Source: a virus (taxonomy: Duplodnaviria; Heunggongvirae; Uroviricota; Caudoviricetes). From it: 64,000 nucleotides of DNA. The first letter of the stretch is position 1, and each line of letters begins with the position of its first letter. The notes under the pieces are model-generated. The model was not told the DNA's origin and made no database searches. It saw only the letters and a list, made by a program, of their open reading frames with translations. The translations under genes were made by a program, and so were the position numbers. The stretch covers positions 127,852 to 191,851 of the IMG/VR virus record IMGVR_UViG_3300028805_000039. One strand, given 5' to 3'. Below are positions 1,681 to 53,160 of this stretch, piece by piece.

Positions 1681-1870
1681 CGCTTTAACACGTTAAAGCG
1701 ATAAATTATTAGCGATTTAGCACGCTAAAGTGCTACCACGCTAAATCCTAAAACCTACTGGGGTAGTATACTTTAGCACGCTAAATCATTAAACCTATAT
1801 GCCCAGTAGGTATATATACTTTAATACGTTAAATCGCTAATGTGCTAAAACCTATATGGCCAGTAGGAGA
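1680..1870. repeat. iteron-like direct and inverted repeats (ttagcacgctaaatc / cctatatgcccagtagg units)
   Basis: three imperfect units of about 45 bp; the same cgctaaatcgcta motif recurs at 25470-25540. Confidence 0.5.
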
Positions 1871-2000: not shown

Positions 2001-2453
2001 ATGACAACTATGCCCGTTCCTGACATTTTTACCACCATTAAAAATAAGGGTATCCGCGCGCAGGCTAATATGACCGCCGCTTGTGGACAAAAGTACATTG
2101 CCCACGACGGCAAGGCATATAACCATGCTTCTGACATTGAGTATATGGGCTATCATATTAGCGTTAAGGCGTACCACTTCACCCTTATGAGCGGTACGCT
2201 GTGCGAAGGTAAAGACACTATCAACGACATATGGGATGTATATGCTCGCACCACCCACAGCGACCGCTTCGCATATGTTCTCGGTGAGACAGCATATGTC
2301 ATGAATATTGTTGAATTTGAGAAGTTTGTCAAGCTGTTCTGTGAGATTGAGCGTGAAAGCAATCATAGCGACAGACAGCATACTGGTAGTTTCAAGGTTC
2401 GCGCCAAGCGTTGCGAAGGCAATATGGCAAAGTGGTTTGCCTCTATGCTGTAA
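2001..2453 (+). CDS. hypothetical protein (150 aa)
   Basis: ORF track; promoter at about 1908 and RBS aaaaggag. Confidence 0.6.
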   Translation: MTTMPVPDIFTTIKNKGIRAQANMTAACGQKYIAHDGKAYNHASDIEYMGYHISVKAYHFTLMSGTLCEGKDTINDIWDVYARTTHSDRFAYVLGETAYVMNIVEFEKFVKLFCEIERESNHSDRQHTGSFKVRAKRCEGNMAKWFASML

Positions 2454-2578
2454 TCATATGCCCGGGCGGCAATATATACAAAGCCGCCCGCTCTAATTTG
2501 TATAATATGCTGACTTGACAAATATAAAAAAATTTGGTAAAATATATATACAAAAGATGAAGAAAGGAATTGATGAAA

Positions 2579-3013
2579 ATGACGATTTGGTTTGATATGG
2601 ATGGTACTCTGGCTGACCTTTATGGTGTTGAAAATTGGCTCCCCATGGTTCGAGCAAGCGACCCTACTCCCTATATAATTGCCCGTCCCCTTGTAAATCT
2701 GTCAGCTCTTGCGCGTATCCTCAATCGGCTTCGCCGCGAGGGCTACGAAATCGGCGTAATTAGCTGGACTTCTAAGACTGGCACTCCTGATTATAACGCC
2801 GCTGTGACTGCCGCCAAGTATGCATGGCTGTCTAAGCACCTGCCATCTGTGGATTTTGATGAAATCCATGTTGTCCCCTACGGCACTCCCAAGCAGGTCT
2901 TTGCCCACTCTGACGATGATATTTTGTTCGATGATGAAGCAAAAAACCGTGAAAATTGGACTGGACTGGCTCTGGATGTTACCGATATTATCGGTGCTTT
3001 GAAAGCCCTTTAA
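2579..3013 (+). CDS. HAD-superfamily hydrolase, 5'(3')-deoxyribonucleotidase-like
   Basis: N-terminal FDMDGTLAD (HAD motif I, DxDGT) plus a conserved K and a DD in motif-like positions; start refined to the ATG of MTIWFDMDG. Confidence 0.6.
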   Translation: MTIWFDMDGTLADLYGVENWLPMVRASDPTPYIIARPLVNLSALARILNRLRREGYEIGVISWTSKTGTPDYNAAVTAAKYAWLSKHLPSVDFDEIHVVPYGTPKQVFAHSDDDILFDDEAKNRENWTGLALDVTDIIGALKAL

Positions 3014-5834: not shown

Positions 5835-5909
5835 GCGCGTGTAACTCAGTGGTAGAGTAATCGCCTTTTAAGCGATAAGTCGCGGGTTCAAGCCCCGCCA
5901 TGCGCACCA
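5835..5909 (+). tRNA. tRNA-Lys(TTT)
   Basis: acceptor gcgcgtg/catgcgc (one G.U); anticodon stem atcgc/gcgat with loop cttttaa; T-arm gcgggttcaagccccgc; CCA. Confidence 0.8.
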
Positions 5910-8073: not shown

Positions 8074-8355
8074 ATGAAAGCAACTGGAATTGTGCGACGT
8101 GTGGATGACCTTGGTCGTATCGTTATCCCTAAAGAGATTCGGCGTACTCTCCACATTAAAGAAGGCGACCCCCTTGAAATCTATGTTGATGACAACATGG
8201 TGTGCTTTAGGAACTATAAGTATCAGGCGGTTGAAGATGCTTGTAAACAAGTTCTTGCCGCTTCCGCTGAATTAGTTAATCCTGAACAGTGTAACGCTAT
8301 TGATGCACACCTTAACGCCATCCGTAAACTGGTATTTGAGTTAGCCGAGAGTTAA
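8074..8355 (+). CDS. AbrB/SpoVT-family (swapped-hairpin) DNA-binding protein
   Basis: N-terminal GIVRRVDDLGRIVIPKEIRRTLHIKEGDPLEIYVDD closely resembles the AbrB N-domain. Confidence 0.7.
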   Translation: MKATGIVRRVDDLGRIVIPKEIRRTLHIKEGDPLEIYVDDNMVCFRNYKYQAVEDACKQVLAASAELVNPEQCNAIDAHLNAIRKLVFELAES

Positions 8356-12099: not shown

Positions 12100-12190
12100 A
12101 GTATGTAAGATAAAGGAAAAGAAACGGAGCCTTGTCCTACTAAAAGGCTTTAGAATCTGGTAGGTAAATCTTTTGAAAGAGGTAGATACT
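12100..12190 (+). promoter_or_regulatory. conserved structured 5' leader of the family-X genes (ggagccttgtcctactaaaaggc...agaatctggtag...gaaagaggtagatactATG)
   Basis: near-identical leaders precede 12191, 18258 and 21521. Confidence 0.5.
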
Positions 12191-12595
12191 ATGTCTCGTA
12201 AGCTGTCCTATGTTTCCGCGATTGATTTCGCTCTGTCCATCCTGTCCCAGATTGATGCTGCTCAGGTGGCTATCCCCGCCGCCAAGGAAGAGGACACTCC
12301 GGTGTCTGTCGGTGAGGTTGTGGAGAAGCTGACCGCTCTCCGTGAGAAGCAGGCCGCTCGTTCGGCTACTAAGGCCGAGGGGCCGACCAAGGCCCAGCTT
12401 GAGCGTGCCGCCCTTGCCTCCCGCATCGGTGATGCTATGGAGCCGGGTGTGACCTACGGCAACGCCGAGATTGCCGCCCTCCTGCCGGAGCTGGCTGGTG
12501 CTACTCCCCAGCGTCTGTCTCCCCTCATGGCTCTGCTCGGTGAGCGGATTGTGACCTCTAAGGTCAAGGGCAAGAACTACTACACTCTTGCCTGA
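12191..12595 (+). CDS. family-X protein (paralog 1 of 4; C-terminus ...KGKNYYTLA)
   Basis: paralogs at 18258, 21521 and 41486 share the C-terminal block and leader; start refined to MSRKLSY. Confidence 0.6.
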   Translation: MSRKLSYVSAIDFALSILSQIDAAQVAIPAAKEEDTPVSVGEVVEKLTALREKQAARSATKAEGPTKAQLERAALASRIGDAMEPGVTYGNAEIAALLPELAGATPQRLSPLMALLGERIVTSKVKGKNYYTLA

Positions 12596-18257: not shown

Positions 18258-18650
18258 ATGGCTAATTCTGTTGCTACTACTGACCGCAAGCCCACCAAGC
18301 GTGACCGCTTTAATCGGCTTTACACCATTGTGCAGGAGGGTTCTTACCACGATGCTGACGAGCTGATGGAGTTTATTGAGCACGAGCTGGAACTGCTCGA
18401 TAAGAAGAATACCGCTGAGCGTAAGCCCACCGCCAAGCAGGTCGCCAACGAGGGCTACAAGCAGAACATCCTTAACTGGATGGAGCCTGACCGCCTGTAC
18501 CTTGCGGCTGAGATTGCCAAGGGTGTGCCTGAGATTGTTGCCAATGGCGTGACTGCCGGCACTGTCACCGCTCTGCTGACCCAGCTTTATAAGGCGGGTA
18601 GCCTGACCCGCACTGAGGACAAGCGCAAGAACTATTACGCCCTCGCGTAA
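18258..18650 (+). CDS. family-X protein (paralog 2)
   Basis: C-terminus GVTAGTVTALLTQLYKAG..KRKNYYALA; conserved leader upstream. Confidence 0.6.
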   Translation: MANSVATTDRKPTKRDRFNRLYTIVQEGSYHDADELMEFIEHELELLDKKNTAERKPTAKQVANEGYKQNILNWMEPDRLYLAAEIAKGVPEIVANGVTAGTVTALLTQLYKAGSLTRTEDKRKNYYALA

Positions 18651-21364: not shown

Positions 21365-21520
21365 CAAAAAAAATAAAAAGGGTCTTGACAAAAGCCTGAA
21401 CCTATGATATAATAAGTATGTAAGCAAGAGGGAGTTGAAAATCCCCTGCTGATAAATGCCTTGCCGCTACTAAAAGGCATAAGAATCTGGTAGCACAAAT
21501 TTTAGAAAGAGGTAGATACT

Positions 21521-21898
21521 ATGGCTAATTCTGTTGAGAAGAAGGTTACTAAGCGTGACCGCTTTAACGAACTGCTCGGCATCCCCGCCGTGGCTGAGAA
21601 TGAGGGTCTGGTTGAGTTTATCAATCACGAGATTGAGCTGCTCGACAAGAAGAATACCGCGGAGCGGAAGCCCACTGCAAAGCAGGTTGCCAATGAGGGT
21701 TATAAGGAAGCCATTGTTGGCTGGATGGAGCCTGACCGCCTGTATCTGGCGGCTGAGATTGCCAAGGGCTGTCCCGCTATCGTGGAGAACGGTGTCACCG
21801 CTGGCACTGTGACCGCCCTGCTGACCCAGCTTTACAAGGCTGGCAAGATTGTCCGCACTGAGGACAAGCGGAAGAATTATTACTCCCTCGCGGAGTAA
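21521..21898 (+). CDS. family-X protein (paralog 3)
   Basis: C-terminus KAGKIVRTEDKRKNYYSLAE; conserved leader. Confidence 0.6.
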   Translation: MANSVEKKVTKRDRFNELLGIPAVAENEGLVEFINHEIELLDKKNTAERKPTAKQVANEGYKEAIVGWMEPDRLYLAAEIAKGCPAIVENGVTAGTVTALLTQLYKAGKIVRTEDKRKNYYSLAE

Positions 21899-23742: not shown

Positions 23743-24024
23743 ATGTTTATTCGTGATTGGGATGGAATGAAATTTGAATCTGAAAATGAAGCATTTGGAA
23801 ATGCTTGTACTGATATGCTTACCGATGGAGCGATTGGTGATTATCTTAAACCTTGGGTAAGCTATGATACTCTTCTTGATTGGGCGATGAAGCAAGACGG
23901 CTTTTTTGATTATTTCGCAGATGAATTTTATAAAGCCCAGCAAGATTATTTCAATGATTTCTATTTTGAAATGGAGGATGATGAAGATGAAAACAGTGAA
24001 TGTGAGGGCGAGAGTAACTTATGA
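23743..24024 (+). CDS. acidic hypothetical protein
   Basis: ORF track. Confidence 0.5.
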   Translation: MFIRDWDGMKFESENEAFGNACTDMLTDGAIGDYLKPWVSYDTLLDWAMKQDGFFDYFADEFYKAQQDYFNDFYFEMEDDEDENSECEGESNL

Positions 24025-24214
24025 TTATCAGGTAGAAATTCCTGATGATGAAGAAGAGTGTGCTATGACTGACATTGCGAGTTATTGCGATGGAAGTGAT
24101 CCAGTATATTCTGCTATGTGTAAGTTAATGGAAAATACAGGTATCCAATGGGAAGGTGAGCTTCTTTCTATTGTTGATGAGAATACTGATGAGGTATTAT
24201 GGTGCGGCGAGTAA
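23987..24214 (+). CDS. hypothetical protein
   Basis: start refined inside track ORF 23906..24214 (MKTVNVRARV). Confidence 0.45.
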   Translation: MKTVNVRARVTYDYQVEIPDDEEECAMTDIASYCDGSDPVYSAMCKLMENTGIQWEGELLSIVDENTDEVLWCGE

Positions 24215-24308
24215 GTCGCACCTAACTGCCCGGGCGCAAAATAGGTATTGACAAGTAAAATAAAATATGTTATAATCATTACAGAAAACAGAAAAGGAGA
24301 AATAAAAA

Positions 24309-24496
24309 TGGAAAAATTAACTTTGGCAAGAATGTGTGAAATTTATGATAATTGTAAAATAAATGATTGCGATAATTGTCCATTAGCTTTAGCTATGGAC
24401 ATTGATGGGAATAGTGCTTGTTCACTTATTGGGCTTCTTCAGGAGGCTATGGAAAATTATAATGATTTTATAATAAATATCTTGACAAATAGTTAA
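24309..24496 (+). CDS. Cys-rich small protein
   Basis: inside track ORF 24248..24496. Confidence 0.45.
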
Positions 24497-24542
24497 ATTT
24501 GTGATATACTAATTCCAGAAACAAAGAAAAGGAGAATAAAAA

Positions 24543-24740
24543 ATGAAAATGTACGACTTCCTTTTTGAATTTACCGAAGATAGCGATAACGAGGGTGAGC
24601 AGATTCTTGTCGAAGCATCAAGTCTTGATAGTGCTTGGGCTTGTCTGGTATTTGACAATGGCTTTGAGTTTAAGGAACTGCGTTTCATCGAGCAGATGGA
24701 GACTTGGGAAGGCGAACTTCTTGGTCTTGATACTTATTAA
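24543..24740 (+). CDS. acidic hypothetical protein
   Basis: ORF track. Confidence 0.5.
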   Translation: MKMYDFLFEFTEDSDNEGEQILVEASSLDSAWACLVFDNGFEFKELRFIEQMETWEGELLGLDTY

Positions 24741-24753
24741 GGAGAATAAAAAA

Positions 24754-24957
24754 ATGGAACCAACACCATCTTGTTCTTATTGTGGTTGTGATTTAACTCT
24801 TTTTGACCACTATGATTGTTATGACACTGAGGACAAAGTGCTTTGTTTTGCTAATGGGTATTGCCCAAAGTGTCGGCGCGAATATCGTTGGACTGATGTT
24901 TATACATTAACTGATTTTGAAGATTTGGAGGAAGTTAATAAAAATGAAAATTGTTGA
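24754..24957 (+). CDS. zinc-ribbon protein (CSYCGC...CPKC)
   Basis: start refined inside track ORF 24565..24957. Confidence 0.45.
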   Translation: MEPTPSCSYCGCDLTLFDHYDCYDTEDKVLCFANGYCPKCRREYRWTDVYTLTDFEDLEEVNKNENC

Positions 24958-25068
24958 ACGGTTTGAAGATGCTAATAAAGTTTGGCGGCTTAATTACGAT
25001 TTCTTTCAATTGCCTTGGTGGGTGTGCGTAGAAGCATACATTAGAAATTTGATAATGGGGGTTAAATA

Positions 25069-25311
25069 ATGAAAGAATACTGGATTGATTTTTCTGGCTA
25101 TGTAAAAGTAGAAGCAGAAAATGCTGATGAAGCAGAACGCAAATTTTGGGATGCCGTTAATACTAAATGTCCTTTCCTTGCTAAAGATGGATTCAATGAT
25201 GATGTGTGGGATTTGGACGCCACAGAGGAAGTGACTAATTTTCCCAGTGCTATTAACAATCCCAATGCTCCTAACTTACAGGATATAGAGGACTTTTGGA
25301 ATGACAAATAA
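25069..25311 (+). CDS. acidic hypothetical protein (80 aa)
   Basis: ORF track. Confidence 0.5.
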   Translation: MKEYWIDFSGYVKVEAENADEAERKFWDAVNTKCPFLAKDGFNDDVWDLDATEEVTNFPSAINNPNAPNLQDIEDFWNDK

Positions 25312-25329
25312 GGGGTGTATAATAATACA

Positions 25330-26400
25330 CCCCTATGAATAATGCCCGGGCAAATCGGCCCGGAGACGCTAGCGTAGGGCCGAACTTCCATTATATCATA
25401 TTTCAGGAAAATTGTCAAGTAAAATATTGCACAAAAATTGGTTTACATAATATCCCGAAACTGTGCACTTTGCTACGCTAAATCGCTAACACTTTAGCAC
25501 GCTAAATCGCTAAATCGCTACTGCGTTAAAGTCCGGCCGCTATGTCTTGACAAAAATATCACAATGTCTGGAAAAAATCTCCATATGCGGCTCGATTTTA
25601 AACAAAAGTGGGCCTAATTTTACCGGTCGGTGGCTTTCGCTAGTCACATATGCGATTGATTTTAAAACAAAAGTGGCTTTAAAACCAGTATATAAAAAAT
25701 TTTAACTAGTTTTTTATCAAAAAAAACTAGTTTTTTTGCGTTTTTAAGTAGTTTTAACTCGTTTTTACTTAGTTTTGCGGCGTTTTTGGCTAGTTTTATC
25801 TCGAAAAAATACCACTTTTTTTGCCTATTTTTGGCGAAAAAAGCCGGTCGGAAACTTGACTTTTAAAAAAAAATTTGATATAATATCAAAAAAAACCATT
25901 TTTTTTTAGGCCGCACGCCCGGATAATAGCATCATTTTATCCTATTCCAGAAGCCAAAATTAAAGGTCAAATTGCCTCACATCAAAAAAAATTAACACGA
26001 ATTCACGTTTCTACTTTTAAAAGTAGTGCGGAGGACAAGAATTATGCCTGGCATACGAGTTCCAAGAGGAACAGAGAAAGGAAAAGTAGGCATATGCGGC
26101 CTTATATTTTATTTAATAATTGACAAATATAAAATAATATGATATAATATAAAAAAAACATACTTTAAATGAGGAGCCACGGATTTAATTCTATTTGCCT
26201 CGCACAAAAATTTTCATTCTCATTTTAACACCTTTATTTTTAACTTTCATAGATAAAACAAGACTATAACTGGCAATACGACTCCAGAGCAAACGAAAAA
26301 ATTTTTGAAGCCGGTCGGTTTAACTATGTATAAAAAGTATTAATTTGAATTTTTTAAAAAAATATTATATAATATATATAGAAAATAAATAAAGGAGAAT
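25330..26400. other. about 1.1-kb non-coding control region at the boundary between modules: short iterons, gccggtcgg x3, catatgcg x3, gattttaaacaaaagtgg x2, phased A/T tracts
   Basis: no ORFs; repeats listed; '(a)ctagtttt' tracts at a 10-11 bp period over 25690-25815; two promoter-like elements. Confidence 0.5.
25470..25540. repeat. cgctaaatcgcta iterons shared with 1680-1870
   Basis: ctacgctaaatcgctaacactttagcacgctaaatcgctaaatcgctact. Confidence 0.5.
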
Positions 26401-26407
26401 TTCTTAA

Positions 26408-26800
26408 ATGAATTATAATTTTAATGATGTAGAGAAGTATCTACGTAATGGTGGAGATGCTGTTGAGTTGGCTCAGGCTTTTGCTGATACTTTGAATAAT
26501 GCACTTGCTAAGTTCCAGAAGGAAAGCAAGTTGGATGAAAAAGCTAATGGGCTTGCCGCGGCTTGGAATGCTTATATTGACGAATATTTTAAGAATCATG
26601 ATGTCCCTGAGAATTATGTCGTGGCCGATATGTATCTCAATACTAAGGATGTCAATTATGTGATGGAGCAGGTGTTGAAGTTTATTCCTCTACTTGATAA
26701 GTTGAATGGATTCTTTGAGATTGGTGCGGAACAGGTGTCCAAGAGCAAGAATAAGGTAGAAGATACAGTAGATAAGTTCTTTGATAAGTTTGGTATCTAA
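26408..26800 (+). CDS. hypothetical protein (130 aa), first gene of the AT-rich module
   Basis: ORF track; late-type promoter at 26340-26395. Confidence 0.55.
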   Translation: MNYNFNDVEKYLRNGGDAVELAQAFADTLNNALAKFQKESKLDEKANGLAAAWNAYIDEYFKNHDVPENYVVADMYLNTKDVNYVMEQVLKFIPLLDKLNGFFEIGAEQVSKSKNKVEDTVDKFFDKFGI

Positions 26801-27229
26801 TAAGTGCCGGAATTAATTTTAATTGTGTACCTTGAAATTTGACAAATTTACTTGCCGTTAAATAAGAAACGAAGATGAACTCGTATTTCTACTTATAATT
26901 GTCGTAGAGTTGAGTTGGATAAAGTGGGAATACGAGTTTTTTAGAAACGGTTGACGGCAACGATGAAAATTAAAAGTCAAGATAAACCGGGCGGAGGCCA
27001 GACCTGTAACGCAATCCAGTGTTATAACGTAACGCAATCCAACCCAACACAATACAAATATAACGTCATAATATACCATTCCAAAAACAATATTTCCTTT
27101 CACTATCTAAAAAGTGAAAGGATTTTTTATTTTCATTTCATTTTTTAAAACACCCTCCCGCCAATTTTTCATTCCATTTTCCAAAACCTCTATTTCCCCT
27201 ATTCCCAGTGGACCACTCGCCGCCAATAC

Positions 27230-27362
27230 TCCCCATTCACAAATATGATTTATAATTATAGATTTATATTACTATCTATTATATATATTATTATATACTA
27301 TATATTATATAATTAAAAATATATATTATATAATATATCTATATAAAAATATATATATTATA
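27230..27362. repeat. pure A/T low-complexity tract (candidate DNA-unwinding element)
   Basis: about 130 bp containing only A and T. Confidence 0.6.
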
Positions 27363-27364
27363 TT

Positions 27365-27840
27365 TCTCCGGAAAAATTTACCGAATCTTGGTGAAAATGC
27401 CTGTTCCAACGACCGCATCTACTAATTCCAGACCAACTTTCGGTAAATTTTACCGTTTCTCCGGTCGTAAATTCGATAAAAATTACCGTTTTTGTGATAC
27501 GTAAATGCGGTAAAATTTACCGCTTTTCCGAGTGTAAATTCGGTAAAATTTACCGAATCTAAATAAAAATGCTAAAACGGTAAAAATTACCGCTTTTACG
27601 GTCGCAAATTCGGTAAAATTTACCGAATTAATACTTTTATCACAAAAATTTAGGAAGATTCATTTAATTCGGTAAAATTTACCGTTTTTCCGTTCGTAAA
27701 TGCGGTAAAATTTACCACTTTTAATATTAACTTTCGGTAAAATTTACCGCATTTACGGTCGCAGTTTCGGTAAAAATTACCGTTTTTCCGTTCGTATAAA
27801 ACGGTAAAAATTACCGTATTTACGACCGCCCCATCTTTTA
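27365..27840. repeat. iteron array: about 14 copies of the near-palindromic 15-mer CGGTAAAATTTACCG
   Basis: units separated by ccgttcgtaaat/gcggt spacers; adjacent to an initiator-like gene; candidate replication origin. Confidence 0.65.
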
Positions 27841-27858
27841 ATAAATTACCATAATTTA

Positions 27859-28293
27859 TTAAAATGTCTAAACTCGTCTTAACTCTCCATCGCTAAGCCG
27901 CACGACATCTTTTTCTATCCATTCAGCATCTTTGTCAACCTCATAACTCAATATGACTTTCAACTTATCCTTTTCATAAGTCTGCGGCACTTCATCAAAT
28001 CTATATCCATTACCAGAAATCTAAACGAGATATCCCTTATTCTCTAATCCCTATCTGGCTTCACGCCAACTTTTATCACTACCCCCAAATTCCTCAATTA
28101 AAGCCTATGGACTAAAAGCCCAACTATCTTTAATCCTATGACAATAAATCCATAAATAAACTTCAAAAGGCTTGCACTCTTTCACAACTTTCTCAAATGC
28201 TGCCGCACTTAATCTATAATAATGATGCGTCGTATCTTTTAAAGCCTCATATCCAGGATAAATAATCTTTGAATTTCTATAAGTCGTTGCCAA
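27859..28293 (-). CDS. replication-initiator / replisome-organiser-like HTH protein; recoded, with 4 in-frame TAG and a TTG start
   Basis: minus-strand frame reads ...WAFSP-TAG-ALIEEFGG...EAR-TAG-GLENKGYLV-TAG-ISGNGYRFDEV...RRV-TAG-TF then TAA; next to the iterons. Confidence 0.45.
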
Positions 28294-28494: not shown

Positions 28495-28728
28495 TTACTA
28501 CTATTTGTTAGTAGTTTTACTATTTTTACTTACTGCGGTTCTATACATACGGAAACCTTTTCTAATTATACTAGCCATAGATACATCGTGTTTATCACAA
28601 TATCGCACTAACCAGCCATACTCTTCCGTAGTTAATTTCACCGATATCTAATGCACTTTCTTATCTTCCAAAAATATTTCAATCCTTTCCATTGCGGATT
28701 TAGGTATGTCTTTAAAGGTCTTTGACAT
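28495..28728 (-). CDS. ribbon-helix-helix-like small protein; recoded (TAG at codon 27; tail TAG TAG TAA)
   Basis: MSKTFKDIPKSAMERIEIFLEDKKVH-TAG-ISVKLTTEEYGWLVRYCDKHDVSMASIIRKGF... Confidence 0.4.
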
Positions 28729-28878
28729 ACCAAAAAAGATAGGCATTTAAACTTGCCTAAAAAGTTGTAAAATTTTAATATATTTTATTTTAACAAAAAT
28801 ATACAGATTTTCATATTGAATTTTATAAAAAAATATTATATAATATATATAGAAAAAATAATAAAGGAGTAATTTATA

Positions 28879-41485: not shown

Positions 41486-41893
41486 ATGTCTGATTCTGTT
41501 GTTAAGGTTACTAAGCGTGAGCGGTATGAGGCTATTAAGACTCTTTGTAGTATGGCTGAGAATGTTGGAGATCTTGATATTGATGGAATTATCGCTTTTT
41601 GTGATAAGGAAATTGAGACTCTTGATGCTAGAGCGGAAAAGGCTAAAGAGCGTGCTGCTATTAAGCGTGCCGAGGGTGATGAACTTTTGGAGATTGTCTA
41701 TAATGCTCTTACTGATGAATTTGAAACTCGTGATGCCATTACTGAGCGCATTGGCAATGAGAATATTTCTGTTGCAAAGGTCACTTATCGTTTGACTTCT
41801 CTTGTTAAGGCTGGTCGAGCTGTAAAAGACGAGACAAATGTCACTGGGGCTGACGGAAAGAATCATCGAGTTTCAGTTTATAAGTTAGCATAA
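41486..41893 (+). CDS. family-X protein (paralog 4, in the late module)
   Basis: ...VTYRLTSLVKAGRAV...VYKLA C-terminus. Confidence 0.55.
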   Translation: MSDSVVKVTKRERYEAIKTLCSMAENVGDLDIDGIIAFCDKEIETLDARAEKAKERAAIKRAEGDELLEIVYNALTDEFETRDAITERIGNENISVAKVTYRLTSLVKAGRAVKDETNVTGADGKNHRVSVYKLA

Positions 41894-52099: not shown

Positions 52100-53160
52100 T
52101 AGTTTAAGATACCTTACAGCAAAAAATGTAATAAAAAAATATGTGGGTGGTTTGGTATCTTGTTTGACAATTCAAAAAAAATTTGATATAATATATTTAG
52201 ACAGTTAGACAGCAATATAATTTAAATAACAAGTTTTATTCAAATATAAAAAGACATGTTTTATTCTCCTTATTTGATATAAAAGAGATTTGATTTTATT
52301 GTGATTCTAATTTCATCAAATCTGCCAGTTATGGAATTATAAAGAAAAGGAATTAACTGTCTAGTTTATTTAAAATTTAAATTATATATAATAAAGACAC
52401 ATGCAGCAATTGATTTACAAAAGGTTGAAATTGTAGGCTGTATACCCACGGTGAAATGGTTCGAATCCATTAAATATTAAAGTGTCTTGTTATTATTAAG
52501 TCTTAAAATATAAATACAAGTTTTGATAACTCAGTGCAGACTATAAGCGACTTATAGGCTGAGAAATACCGAAGTGAGGCTCGGCACGGAACGAAACAAG
52601 GATACTTGTGGATAGTGGACCGCACTTTATATCGTGAGATATAAAGCGAACCCATGCGGGGAAAGGAAAGGTATTGTGCTAAAGTTATCGCAATTTAAAA
52701 TACCCGAGGGCGGGCAGAGTAATAGAAAGCTTTGTTGATAAGACAAAGCCGAATCCAGAAAACCGCGACCGGTGGCACGGCGTGAGAGTCTGGAAAAGCC
52801 AAACAATCTGTTGAATGTAGTTGAATAGGAGAAATCCTAGTATAACGCCTAACCAGGGTGCGAGTAGGGGAAATCTACAAAGGCTCAAATCTTAAAGACT
52901 TGAAGATATTATATTATTGATTGGTAAATATAATTAACAATACAATTTCTGAAAGTCCCCTGAAAGTTGTGGGTAAGCAATCCCACCAAGACGAAAGTTA
53001 GCTGTAAGCTAATGTCATAGGAAGCGTCATATCGACGGGTATGAGCTCAGACCTATGGTAGCTTGTGATTGAAAAAAATTGAAGGTAATTAGTAGTAGGG
53101 GGAAGCCCCATCAAAAAATCTGTATTTATATTTTAGGACTTAAAGTTCTTATTAAGAGAA
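52100..53160 (+). ncRNA. non-coding island of about 1 kb: an AT-rich promoter zone followed by a GC-enriched structured core (52500-53100)
   Basis: no ORFs; an isolated T-arm-like atggttcgaatccat at about 52460; stems such as cccgagggcgggc, ccgcgaccggtggcacggcg and ctacaaaggctc. Confidence 0.3.

Follow-up and report, generated by a model that had tools for sequence, protein, structure and literature searches.

A gene-free junction with predicted divergent promoters and a phased T-tract array in a ~240-kb phage genome

Curved-DNA and UP-element promoters include those of Bacillus phage SP82 (Alu156), Clostridium perfringens (plc), and Escherichia coli (rrnB P1), and the early/late switch of phage phi29 involves promoters A2c/A2b versus A3 and proteins p4 and p6. 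These elements, together with the untranslated repeat region of phage T5 (see below), were compared to a gene-free gap located at positions 25312-26407 (designated here as the hub) of a 64,000-nt stretch of Caudoviricetes phage DNA (designated here as the window; positions 127,852 to 191,851 of IMG/VR record IMGVR_UViG_3300028805_000039). Promoters, start sites, and transcripts are consensus-based predictions throughout, and 'early' and 'late' are assigned from promoter classes alone. Like the SP82 Alu156-, plc-, and rrnB P1-type promoters, the hub contained helical-turn-phased tracts directly upstream of a near-consensus -35 hexamer, in a register kept among close relatives; unlike them, (i) its array was composed of 11-17 tracts over 130-180 bp instead of the usual 3-6, (ii) the position of the proximal UP subsite was occupied by a GC-rich CCGRYCGG palindrome, and (iii) in one branch of relatives (loci L187 and L188) the array lay beside the opposite promoter. 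The hub and the phi29 switch shared compact divergent promoters between early and late units, together with bent DNA (predicted here) and repeated protein sites, but the hub was five times longer and had tandem promoters on one side plus non-coding transcript units, and no homolog of phi29 p4 or p6 was found.

By analogy, the closest overall architecture would be that of the T5 untranslated repeat region, or injection stop signal. In T5, the pre-early DNA terminates inwards in the untranslated Repeat Region 3 (1.2 kb), which has its partner, an inverted copy of 131 bp, in another untranslated region (bioRxiv 10.1101/866236). The T5 region and the hub shared ~1.1-1.2 kb of untranslated DNA at the inner boundary of the first-expressed module (bioRxiv 10.1101/866236), with the expression order of the window read from promoter class; they further shared direct repeats, palindromes, a bend (predicted here), and higher conservation than the neighbouring open reading frames (ORFs). 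In each, a part recurred in another untranslated region some kilobases off, although for the hub this was only the ~24-nt box motif, in ambiguous orientation. Both modules also contained a 5'-deoxynucleotidase gene and a nuclease-like gene (argued for T5 A1, and a nuclease fold here). Unlike in T5, no paired DnaA boxes were found (in 13865-34186), and the hub was visibly built of consensus promoters and belonged to a genome twice as large, with TAG as a sense codon and probably a Gram-positive host.

On balance, and with modest conviction, the region is read here as a transcription-control hub with divergent and tandem promoters and architectural bent DNA, located where two transcriptional modules are predicted to meet; as an element it is elaborate but of a known type, and not of a new one. 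An earlier note on this DNA, made from the sequence alone, had proposed a second origin, a packaging site, partition sites, or binding sites of a temporal regulator. The last of these four roles appeared to be the best supported, since promoters were predicted on both strands and the palindromes and the array were kept at fixed distances from them.

Module boundary and promoter classes

All comparisons were anchored at the 130-amino-acid (aa) gene 26408-26800 and covered 15 related loci, with 31-95% identity of the adjacent 130-aa protein: a close set of six loci (78-95%) was reached via homologs of this protein, and a metagenome scan yielded extra loci at 76-79%, 42%, 35%, and 31%. The protein database contained 25 homologs at 73-100% identity, and further ones were found at 31-42%; the 130-aa protein matched no Pfam or PHROG family, and as sole query it gave no match in IMG/VR. 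The phage genome was ~240 kb (an identical 130-aa protein sat on a 239,565-bp contig), and the contigs of the relatives were 130-241 kb. BLAST of 24000-28000 against GenBank phages gave no match, and no relatives were present among 185,579 species genomes.

The hub was bordered by an 80-aa ORF (25069-25311) and the 130-aa ORF (26408-26800), and its counterpart measured ~1.09-1.13 kb in the six closer relatives, with ~1.36 kb for L160 among them if counted from the last + strand gene. No conserved ORF was found in 25312-26407. The only plausible one (26045-26142, with GGAGG and then ATG) was rejected as coding because neither its Shine-Dalgarno sequence, which varied among relatives, nor its C-terminus was conserved; a 24-nt insertion moreover added a stop codon.

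The gap coincided with the window's best GC change point (24250-25700; GC 0.401 to the left and 0.324 to the right) and with a change of promoter class, and thus the module boundary, the composition shift, and the promoter switch claimed in the earlier note were all borne out. The first class, detected by promoter scan, numbered ~50 on the + strand, lying within 259-24482 and built as aAAAA..TTGACA-17-TGnTATAAT. A conserved block of 45 nt, TTTGAAAATTTTAAAAAAATATTATATAATATTTATAGAAAAT, made up the second class, whose right-hand members began at 26345 and included 15 more up to 60824; the left module contained two strays of this class.

As a side observation, ~50 near-consensus promoters in 24 kb amounted to roughly one per small gene, and several of them were present as near-identical repeated cassettes. 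In L034, a 99.99% identical strain, left-module segments were rearranged or deleted, with junctions at repeated promoters.

Architecture and conservation of the hub

The features of the hub were as follows, from left to right.

25300..25384, - strand: predicted short leftward transcript or leader, with a 5' hairpin UCGGCCC...GGGCCGA, ending at T1
25311..25334: hairpin T1, GGGGTGTA-taataa-TACACCCC, from the terminator scan, at the stop codon of the last left-module gene
25390..25418, - strand: P(-), TTGACA-17-TG-TATAAT, pointing left, from the promoter scan
25466..25521: box cluster, with imperfect palindrome TTTGCTACGCTAAA (25469-25482), perfect palindrome TTTAGCACGCTAAA (25493-25506), and AAATCGCTA repeats
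25582-25611 and 25647-25676, + strand: R1 and R2, 30-nt direct repeats CATATGCG..GATTTTAAACAAAAGTGG
25700..25842: phased T/A-tract array of 11 T-tracts plus 2 in-phase A-tracts
25844..25851: CCGRYCGG palindrome (CCGGTCGG), 12 nt upstream of the P1 -35
25856..25884, + strand: P1, TTGACT-17-TG-TATAAT with an A-rich spacer
25888..25915, + strand: promoter-proximal element A8-CCA-T9-AGGCCGCA after P1
25891..26119, + strand: unit 1 body, predicted P1 transcript, non-coding, with closing stem AGGCCGCA/UGCGGCCU
26120..26148, + strand: P2, TTGACA-17-TG-TATAAT
26155..26344, + strand: unit 2 body, predicted P2 transcript, non-coding, ending in GCCGGTCGG
26345..26373, + strand: P3, TTGAAT-17-TATAAT within the conserved block of 45 nt, with a ribosome-binding site and ATG 26408 downstream
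26408..26800, + strand: 130-aa gene, the first gene served by P1-P3

The tracts of the array started at 25700, 25710, 25719 (A8), 25731, 25741, 25752, 25762, 25773, 25783, 25794, 25804 (A6), 25816, and 25828, and the array ended 14 bp upstream of the P1 -35. The ~10.5-bp tract phasing that had been pointed out at 25690-25815 was the strongest of the window: the top 13 of 6387 sliding 130-bp segments for TTT periodicity all fell within 25640-25890 (period 10.4-11.1), and no stronger periodicity was seen across 1.86 Mb of phage loci. The bent DNA predicted from this phasing was checked with a wedge model, of which the ranking alone counts: 25686-25826 ranked first of 6385 segments, with an end-to-end/contour ratio of 0.175 against a median of 0.947. 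The repeat unit was really 21 bp, nTAGTTTT..nCGTTTTT, in ~5 copies; TAGTTTT occurred exactly every 21 bp (25707, 25728, 25749, 25770, and 25791) in alternation with (C/T)GTTTTT. Over the window TAGTTTT was not enriched (27 hits versus 25 expected), and only its 21-bp spacing in the array was special.

Among close relatives, the array was 83-97% identical apart from one deletion; the sole large indel was exactly 21 bp, equal to two helical turns. Variable positions numbered 4 of 76 within tracts versus 32 of 67 between tracts (Fisher 3e-9), and all close relatives shared the tract starts relative to the P1 -35 (-28, -40, -62, -73, and so on). Two of the tracts, the T-tract at -28 and the A-tract at -19, were retained in the 42%-identity relatives. 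L187 and L188 had stronger phasing (periodicity power 6.5-8) with tracts flanked by different letters (TTTTTGTAA/TTTTTGTCA), and thus the phasing was conserved and not a word. Such retention of phase through a change of letters makes a rare clean comparative argument for selection on DNA shape.

P1 and P2, both predicted as strong promoters of host type (TTGACW-17-TGnTATAAT), had near-consensus hexamers at 17 bp (11/12 and 12/12 matches, respectively), each with the extended -10 TG; P1 was 90-96% identical in relatives and P2 97-100% identical in six of them. Behind P1-type promoters, an A-run/T-run/GCCGCA element was present at 12 of the 15 loci. P3 was the first member of the second promoter class, and the rightward transcription from P1-P3 was predicted to end at a bidirectional terminator at 27095-27122. 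On the other strand, P(-) was the sole 12/12 minus-strand promoter in 64 kb; its -35 was invariant and its -10 was TATAAT or TAAAAT in seven aligned close relatives, and a promoter of this form was found at 14 of the 15 loci, -840 to -1015 from the ATG. The ~85-nt leader behind it had a fold z of -3.58, and the leader hairpin was kept in seven sequences with one compensatory change and one G-U. In L160 and L168, P(-) and the leader led into a real gene on the minus strand (62 or 76 aa), and it is because of these genes and the compensatory change that P(-) is taken as genuine. In the window genome, P(-) would yield only a short hairpin-terminated transcript. T1, kept in five of seven close relatives, looks like the terminator of this leftward transcript and possibly serves rightward early transcripts too; its L187 counterpart had T-runs on both sides, and a second GC-rich hairpin followed at 25345-25364. 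A TTGACA at 25547 was rejected as a promoter: it was unconserved and without a -10.

The short repeats listed in the earlier note were present as described, and an 18-mer listed there belonged in truth to the 30-nt R1/R2 direct repeat. R1 and R2, set 65 bp apart and sharing 80% identity, flanked ACCGGTCGG; R1 was 93-100% identical in six relatives, and the R repeats (CATATGCG...AAACAAAAGTGG) were recognisable in the 35-42%-identity relatives L183-L185 and L187. The hub had three copies of CATATGCG and two exact copies of GCCGGTCGG, plus one ACCGGTCGG. CCGRYCGG gave four hits in the window versus 0.53 expected, three of them in the hub: besides the copy upstream of P1, these were at 25623 and, 34 nt before the P3 -35, at 26311 (CCGGTCGG), and their positions relative to promoters were the same in relatives, including the 42%-identity ones. 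In most relatives at least one box was kept, with variable copy number.

Units 1 and 2 were collinear paralogs (z = 6.3, and 5.3 without promoters) with a common TTGCCTCRCA motif found nowhere else. Accordingly, the word 'iterons' stood only in part: the repeats were real, but gccggtcgg and catatgcggcc were the partly homologous ends of these two promoter-plus-transcript units, which accounted for part of the iteron impression. Unit 1 (75-93% identical in relatives) had a fold z of -2.66 with weak covariation (three compensatory pairs, and 9 of 44 pairs broken in some sequence); unit 2 (85-97% identical) had no significant fold. With Rfam 15, nothing reached the gathering score in the window beyond tRNAs and the ROOL RNA, and 25200-27400 gave chance-level hits only (E up to 5).

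Conservation in relatives had been set beforehand as the test of the earlier note, and the elements were found to be conserved down to 31-42% identity of the neighbouring protein. The hub DNA was conserved as much as its flanking genes or more (80-95% for the 130-aa gene and 33-76% for the upstream gene). The T-array and the tandem rightward promoters were present at all 15 loci, and the 31-42%-identity loci kept nearly the whole kit: P(-), R repeats, T-array, two to four tandem promoters, the second-class promoter, and the TTGCCTCGC motif. The UUGCCUCRCA motif persisted at 14 of the 15 loci, including the 42%, 35%, and 31% relatives; unit 1 shrank to 50-70 nt in the 35-42% relatives, and the short L188 locus was without the leftward promoter and R repeats.

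Box echo at 1.7 kb and origin-like element

Two further regions of the window were related to the hub by shared boxes or by position.

1684..1870: echo region with four palindromic boxes (1684, 1716, 1772, and 1820), each followed by a TAAAACCTA..TAGG hairpin
2001..2453, + strand: 150-aa protein with a restriction-endonuclease (PD-(D/E)XK) fold, adjoining the echo region
2570-3013: NT5C-type 5'-deoxynucleotidase gene, after the 150-aa gene
27240..28293: origin-like element, 0.85 kb right of the hub
27859-28293, - strand: winged-helix gene of 144 aa with TAG read as Gln, right of the palindromes

The cgctaaatcgcta repeats of the hub had been reported to recur 23.7 kb away at 1680-1870, and this echo was real. 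Each box was a 16-bp palindrome CTTTAGCACGCTAAAG with core TTTARYACGYTAAA, and this core occurred in the window only at 1684, 1716, 1772, 1820, and 25493, with an imperfect copy at 25469. Local alignment of the hub with 1.68-1.87 kb scored 38-39 versus a shuffle maximum of 32; direct and inverted alignments scored alike because the box core is palindromic, and therefore no orientation of the echo is claimed and an inverted arrangement of the two box sets was dropped. The shared part was the box motif only (~24 nt). The echo region had two terminators upstream and a promoter (1913) downstream, and the box-promoter-gene layout was kept upstream of homologs of the 150-aa gene (30-68% identity), including those in L155, L172, and L174. 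Arrays of two to seven boxes were found in non-coding DNA of other phage contigs with different flanking DNA; a gene of the nuclease family was present at 10 of 17 box-array loci, usually within a few hundred bp of the boxes, versus 13 of 172 other loci. The boxes of the hub represented a satellite set without the nuclease gene.

The boxes resembled operators of RK2. The KorB operator is a 13-bp palindrome TTTAGC-S-GCTAAA bound by a ParB-family protein, and the half-site TTTAGC/GCTAAA of the KorB (OB) and KorA (OA) operators is identical to that of the boxes, which had a spacer of 2 nt (AC) versus 1 nt in OB and 0 nt in OA (PMC11790492). Both kinds of site were palindromic and present in several copies in non-coding DNA, but the boxes, unlike the RK2 operators, were linked to a restriction-endonuclease-fold gene. 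No ParB domain and no KorB or KorA homolog was found among ~27 distinct window proteins scanned, and with their 2-nt spacer the boxes did not conform to a KorB/ParB-type operator.

Several observations were made on box arrays elsewhere. The module of a box array plus a small PD-(D/E)XK gene recurred in several phage lineages (L077, L089, L108, L128, L131, L153, L155, L172, and L173), and an NT5C gene stood behind the nuclease gene in the window and in several relatives of the nuclease gene. L045 (14,054 bp) and L157 (12,315 bp) each had inverted box-array copies at both ends, with a perfect 288-bp terminal inverted repeat in L045; these ends could reflect a genuine segment that is invertible or flanked by inverted repeats, or else an artefact of assembly. 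Host-regulator-like sites were seen beside box arrays of other phages: (i) tandem heptads AGTCAAA-N3-AGTCAAA near those in L131 (241-300) and L103 (~5850-5890), which we take to resemble the CtsR operator; (ii) three tandem DnaA boxes TGTGGATAA by that in L156 (~4700-4660, minus strand as displayed); and (iii) GAAC-N4-GTTC repeats in L115, resembling Gram-positive LexA sites. In the window, an ORF-free stretch with ~50% GC (1107-1592) lay between a consensus promoter at 1070 and a terminator at ~1560-1590, and gave neither an Rfam match nor a fold signal (z = -0.13); the box arrays in L174 and L103 were likewise preceded by GC-rich stretches.

The origin-like element was composed of a ~125-bp nearly pure A+T block (27240-27365), 12-13 palindromes CGGTAAAATTTACCG (27369-27816), and the winged-helix gene. 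CGGTAAAATTTACCG gave 26 strand-hits versus 2.4 expected, with ~33-bp spacing in a larger dyad; this spacing was identical at eight of nine loci, and L170 showed 10 of 12 palindromes, with two below threshold. The array of CGGTAAAATTTACCG was the second most curved stretch of the window. The 144-aa protein had weak PHROG matches to a replication initiation protein (1.3e-4) and a DnaD-like one (2e-4), its model had a winged-helix core at low confidence (predicted local distance difference test score, pLDDT, of 56.5) with generic fold matches, and no solved relative of it was found by sequence. No TTATCCACA-like DnaA box with at most one mismatch was found in 13865-34186, and GC skew stayed positive through 25-27 kb and became negative only at 27-29 kb, so that no strand-composition switch was seen at the hub. 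The hub had 21-bp units, but the AT block, palindromes, and winged-helix gene lay 0.85-2 kb to the right. The second origin proposed in the hub, with neither DnaA boxes nor an adjacent initiator gene nor a skew switch, was thus not upheld, and 27240-28293 is likely the better origin candidate. As the rightward unit ends at the terminator 27095-27122, the hub may feed transcription towards this element.

Alternative explanations and further features of the window

A role of the hub as part of a replication origin, with the 21-bp tract units as iterons or with the bend and promoters as an enhancer or transcriptional activator of the element 0.85 kb downstream, is improbable. Five copies of a 21-bp unit match a typical iteron period, bent DNA is common at origins, the AT block, 12-palindrome array, and winged-helix gene follow immediately to the right with the same spacing at eight of nine loci, the palindrome array ranks next to the hub in curvature, and the transcription from P1-P3 stops just before the AT block; on the other side stand the missing DnaA boxes and adjoining initiator gene, a skew sign change that falls at 27-29 kb and not at 25.3-26.4 kb, tract-flanking letters unconserved in L187/L188 (against sequence-specific iterons), and an initiator assignment that rests on E ~1e-4 and a generic fold. 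A small-RNA function overlaps with the control-hub reading and is unlikely, if somewhat more than marginal: two paralogous ~200-nt RNAs (from P1 and P2) and a ~80-nt leftward RNA would act in trans, e.g., through UUGCCUCRCA on ribosome-binding sites. The collinear paralogy of the units, bodies 75-97% identical in relatives without a conserved ORF, the unit 1 fold with its conserved closing stem, the motif confined to the two units and persisting across loci, and the occurrence of the same hybrid-type promoter at 52164 before the ROOL RNA gene all agree with such RNAs, but neither unit had a clear terminator behind it, unit 2 lacked a fold signal, the covariation of unit 1 was weak with broken pairs, its length fell to 50-70 nt in the 35-42% relatives, and no Rfam family matched.

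A cis-acting boundary of the T5 injection-stop-signal type, which would pause DNA entry or mark a long-terminal-repeat end or processing site, is likewise improbable. In it, the first-expressed module would be marked at its inner end by the untranslated repeats, with the 1.7-kb box echo as their partner site and with the nuclease-fold and 5'-deoxynucleotidase genes as counterparts of T5 pre-early functions; this agrees with 1.1 kb of untranslated DNA at the module boundary, better conserved than the ORF upstream of it, with the real box echo and the restriction-endonuclease-fold and NT5C genes adjoining it, and with a region-1-type unit inside the junction in L187. Nevertheless, paired DnaA boxes, the defining feature of the T5 element, were absent, the region was clearly built around promoters, a probably Gram-positive host would make the T5 membrane-DnaA model not transferable, and the contig ends of relatives were not clustered in the hub except at the repeated 45-nt second-class promoter, which is an assembly effect. 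It is a long shot that the hub and the box echo 23.7 kb away bracket the first-expressed 24-kb module of a jumbo phage as a T5-like gate controlling entry, silencing, or processing, with the array as a nucleoprotein stop or loading platform and the CTTTAGCACGCTAAAG boxes as sites for the restriction-fold protein; if a T5-like reading is right, tests of two-step genome delivery or of module gating would become possible beyond the T5 group. Barely credible is a parC-type centromere, in which phased 10-11-bp repeats by a promoter and a small ribbon-helix-helix protein would form a curved filament: the phased repeats do abut a promoter, most strikingly in L187, and an 83-aa repressor-like protein is encoded 2.7 kb away, but no ParM/ParA-type NTPase was recognised in the neighbourhood, the tract-flanking letters were not conserved, and there was no sign of plasmid maintenance and no relative in the 185,579 species genomes. 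Neither a terminase nor a partition NTPase was recognised near the hub, and no observation favoured the packaging or partition roles of the earlier note.

In the preferred reading as a transcription-control hub, the tract array would be intrinsically curved DNA serving as an architectural element, wrapping upstream DNA around RNA polymerase at P1 or, alternatively, bringing R1/R2- and box-bound proteins to the promoters as an IHF-type bend does elsewhere. The palindromes would be operators for phage or host regulators timing the change from the first to the second promoter class; tandem promoters of different classes would keep the downstream gene expressed through this change; and the non-coding units behind P1 and P2 would descend from an old tandem duplication and may act as leaders or small RNAs. 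Several points weigh against this reading. In L187/L188 the array lay between P(-) and the R repeats, 220 bp from P1; because it adjoined P(-) there, a simple UP element of P1 fails for the whole family, and the array appears to belong to the divergent promoter region as a whole rather than to P1 by itself. In close relatives, every second tract was preceded by an invariant TAG, beyond the needs of curvature, which hints at a sequence-specific binder. The bodies of units 1 and 2 were conserved like coding DNA, for which promoter function alone is insufficient. No regulator was tied to the sites, since the tested proteins yielded only an AbrB/MazE domain, winged-helix folds of a generic kind, and one weak match to a repressor, and a DNA-level role in entry, replication, or packaging is possible. 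Annotation of large uncultivated phages deals almost wholly with proteins, and next to nothing is known of the regulatory DNA of such phages; the junction provides a concrete, conserved map of the wiring of one phage family, and the selection on phasing, the candidate origin next door, and the palindromic-box/restriction-fold module are the leads most worth following.

The genes of the window were nearly all on the + strand, and its RNA genes were 29 tRNAs and a full-length ROOL RNA. The ROOL RNA (52506-53129; Rfam RF03087, 292 bits) was located inside a cluster of 25 tRNA genes (47.5-63 kb), ~340 nt downstream of the strong hybrid-type promoter at 52164. TAG is a sense codon in this phage, most likely for Gln: four in-frame TAGs were present in a formate/nitrite-transporter-like gene (29547-30248, - strand) and one in a major-vault-protein-like gene, with further examples in 27859-28293 (-) and 28495-28746 (-); TAG in relatives aligned with Gln codons of the window genome; and of 87 ORFs with 70 aa or more, only 4 ended in TAG, spread over both window halves. 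No suppressor tRNA was found among the 29 tRNAs.

The major-vault-protein-like gene (30779-33226) encoded an 815-aa protein with one in-frame TAG and major-vault-protein shoulder and repeat domains (Pfam 6.7e-19 and 1.3e-8), and was 49-81% identical in 33 IMG/VR contigs of up to 200 kb; these 33 loci, obtained with the protein as bait, were set aside since their upstream DNA was non-syntenic with the hub. The left module contained a 93-aa AbrB/SpoVT-type protein (8074-8355; MazE_antitoxin domain, 1.4e-12), which is a candidate binder of bent AT-rich DNA and suggests a Gram-positive host. Four paralogous 130-145-aa proteins (12173-12595, 18258-18650, 21461-21898, and 41486-41893), of which those scanned gave no Pfam match, are possibly DNA-binding; their C-termini were ...K(R)KNYY(A/S/T)LA, with ...HRVSVYKLA in the copy at 41486-41893, and a homolog of them was encoded just upstream of the L106 box array.

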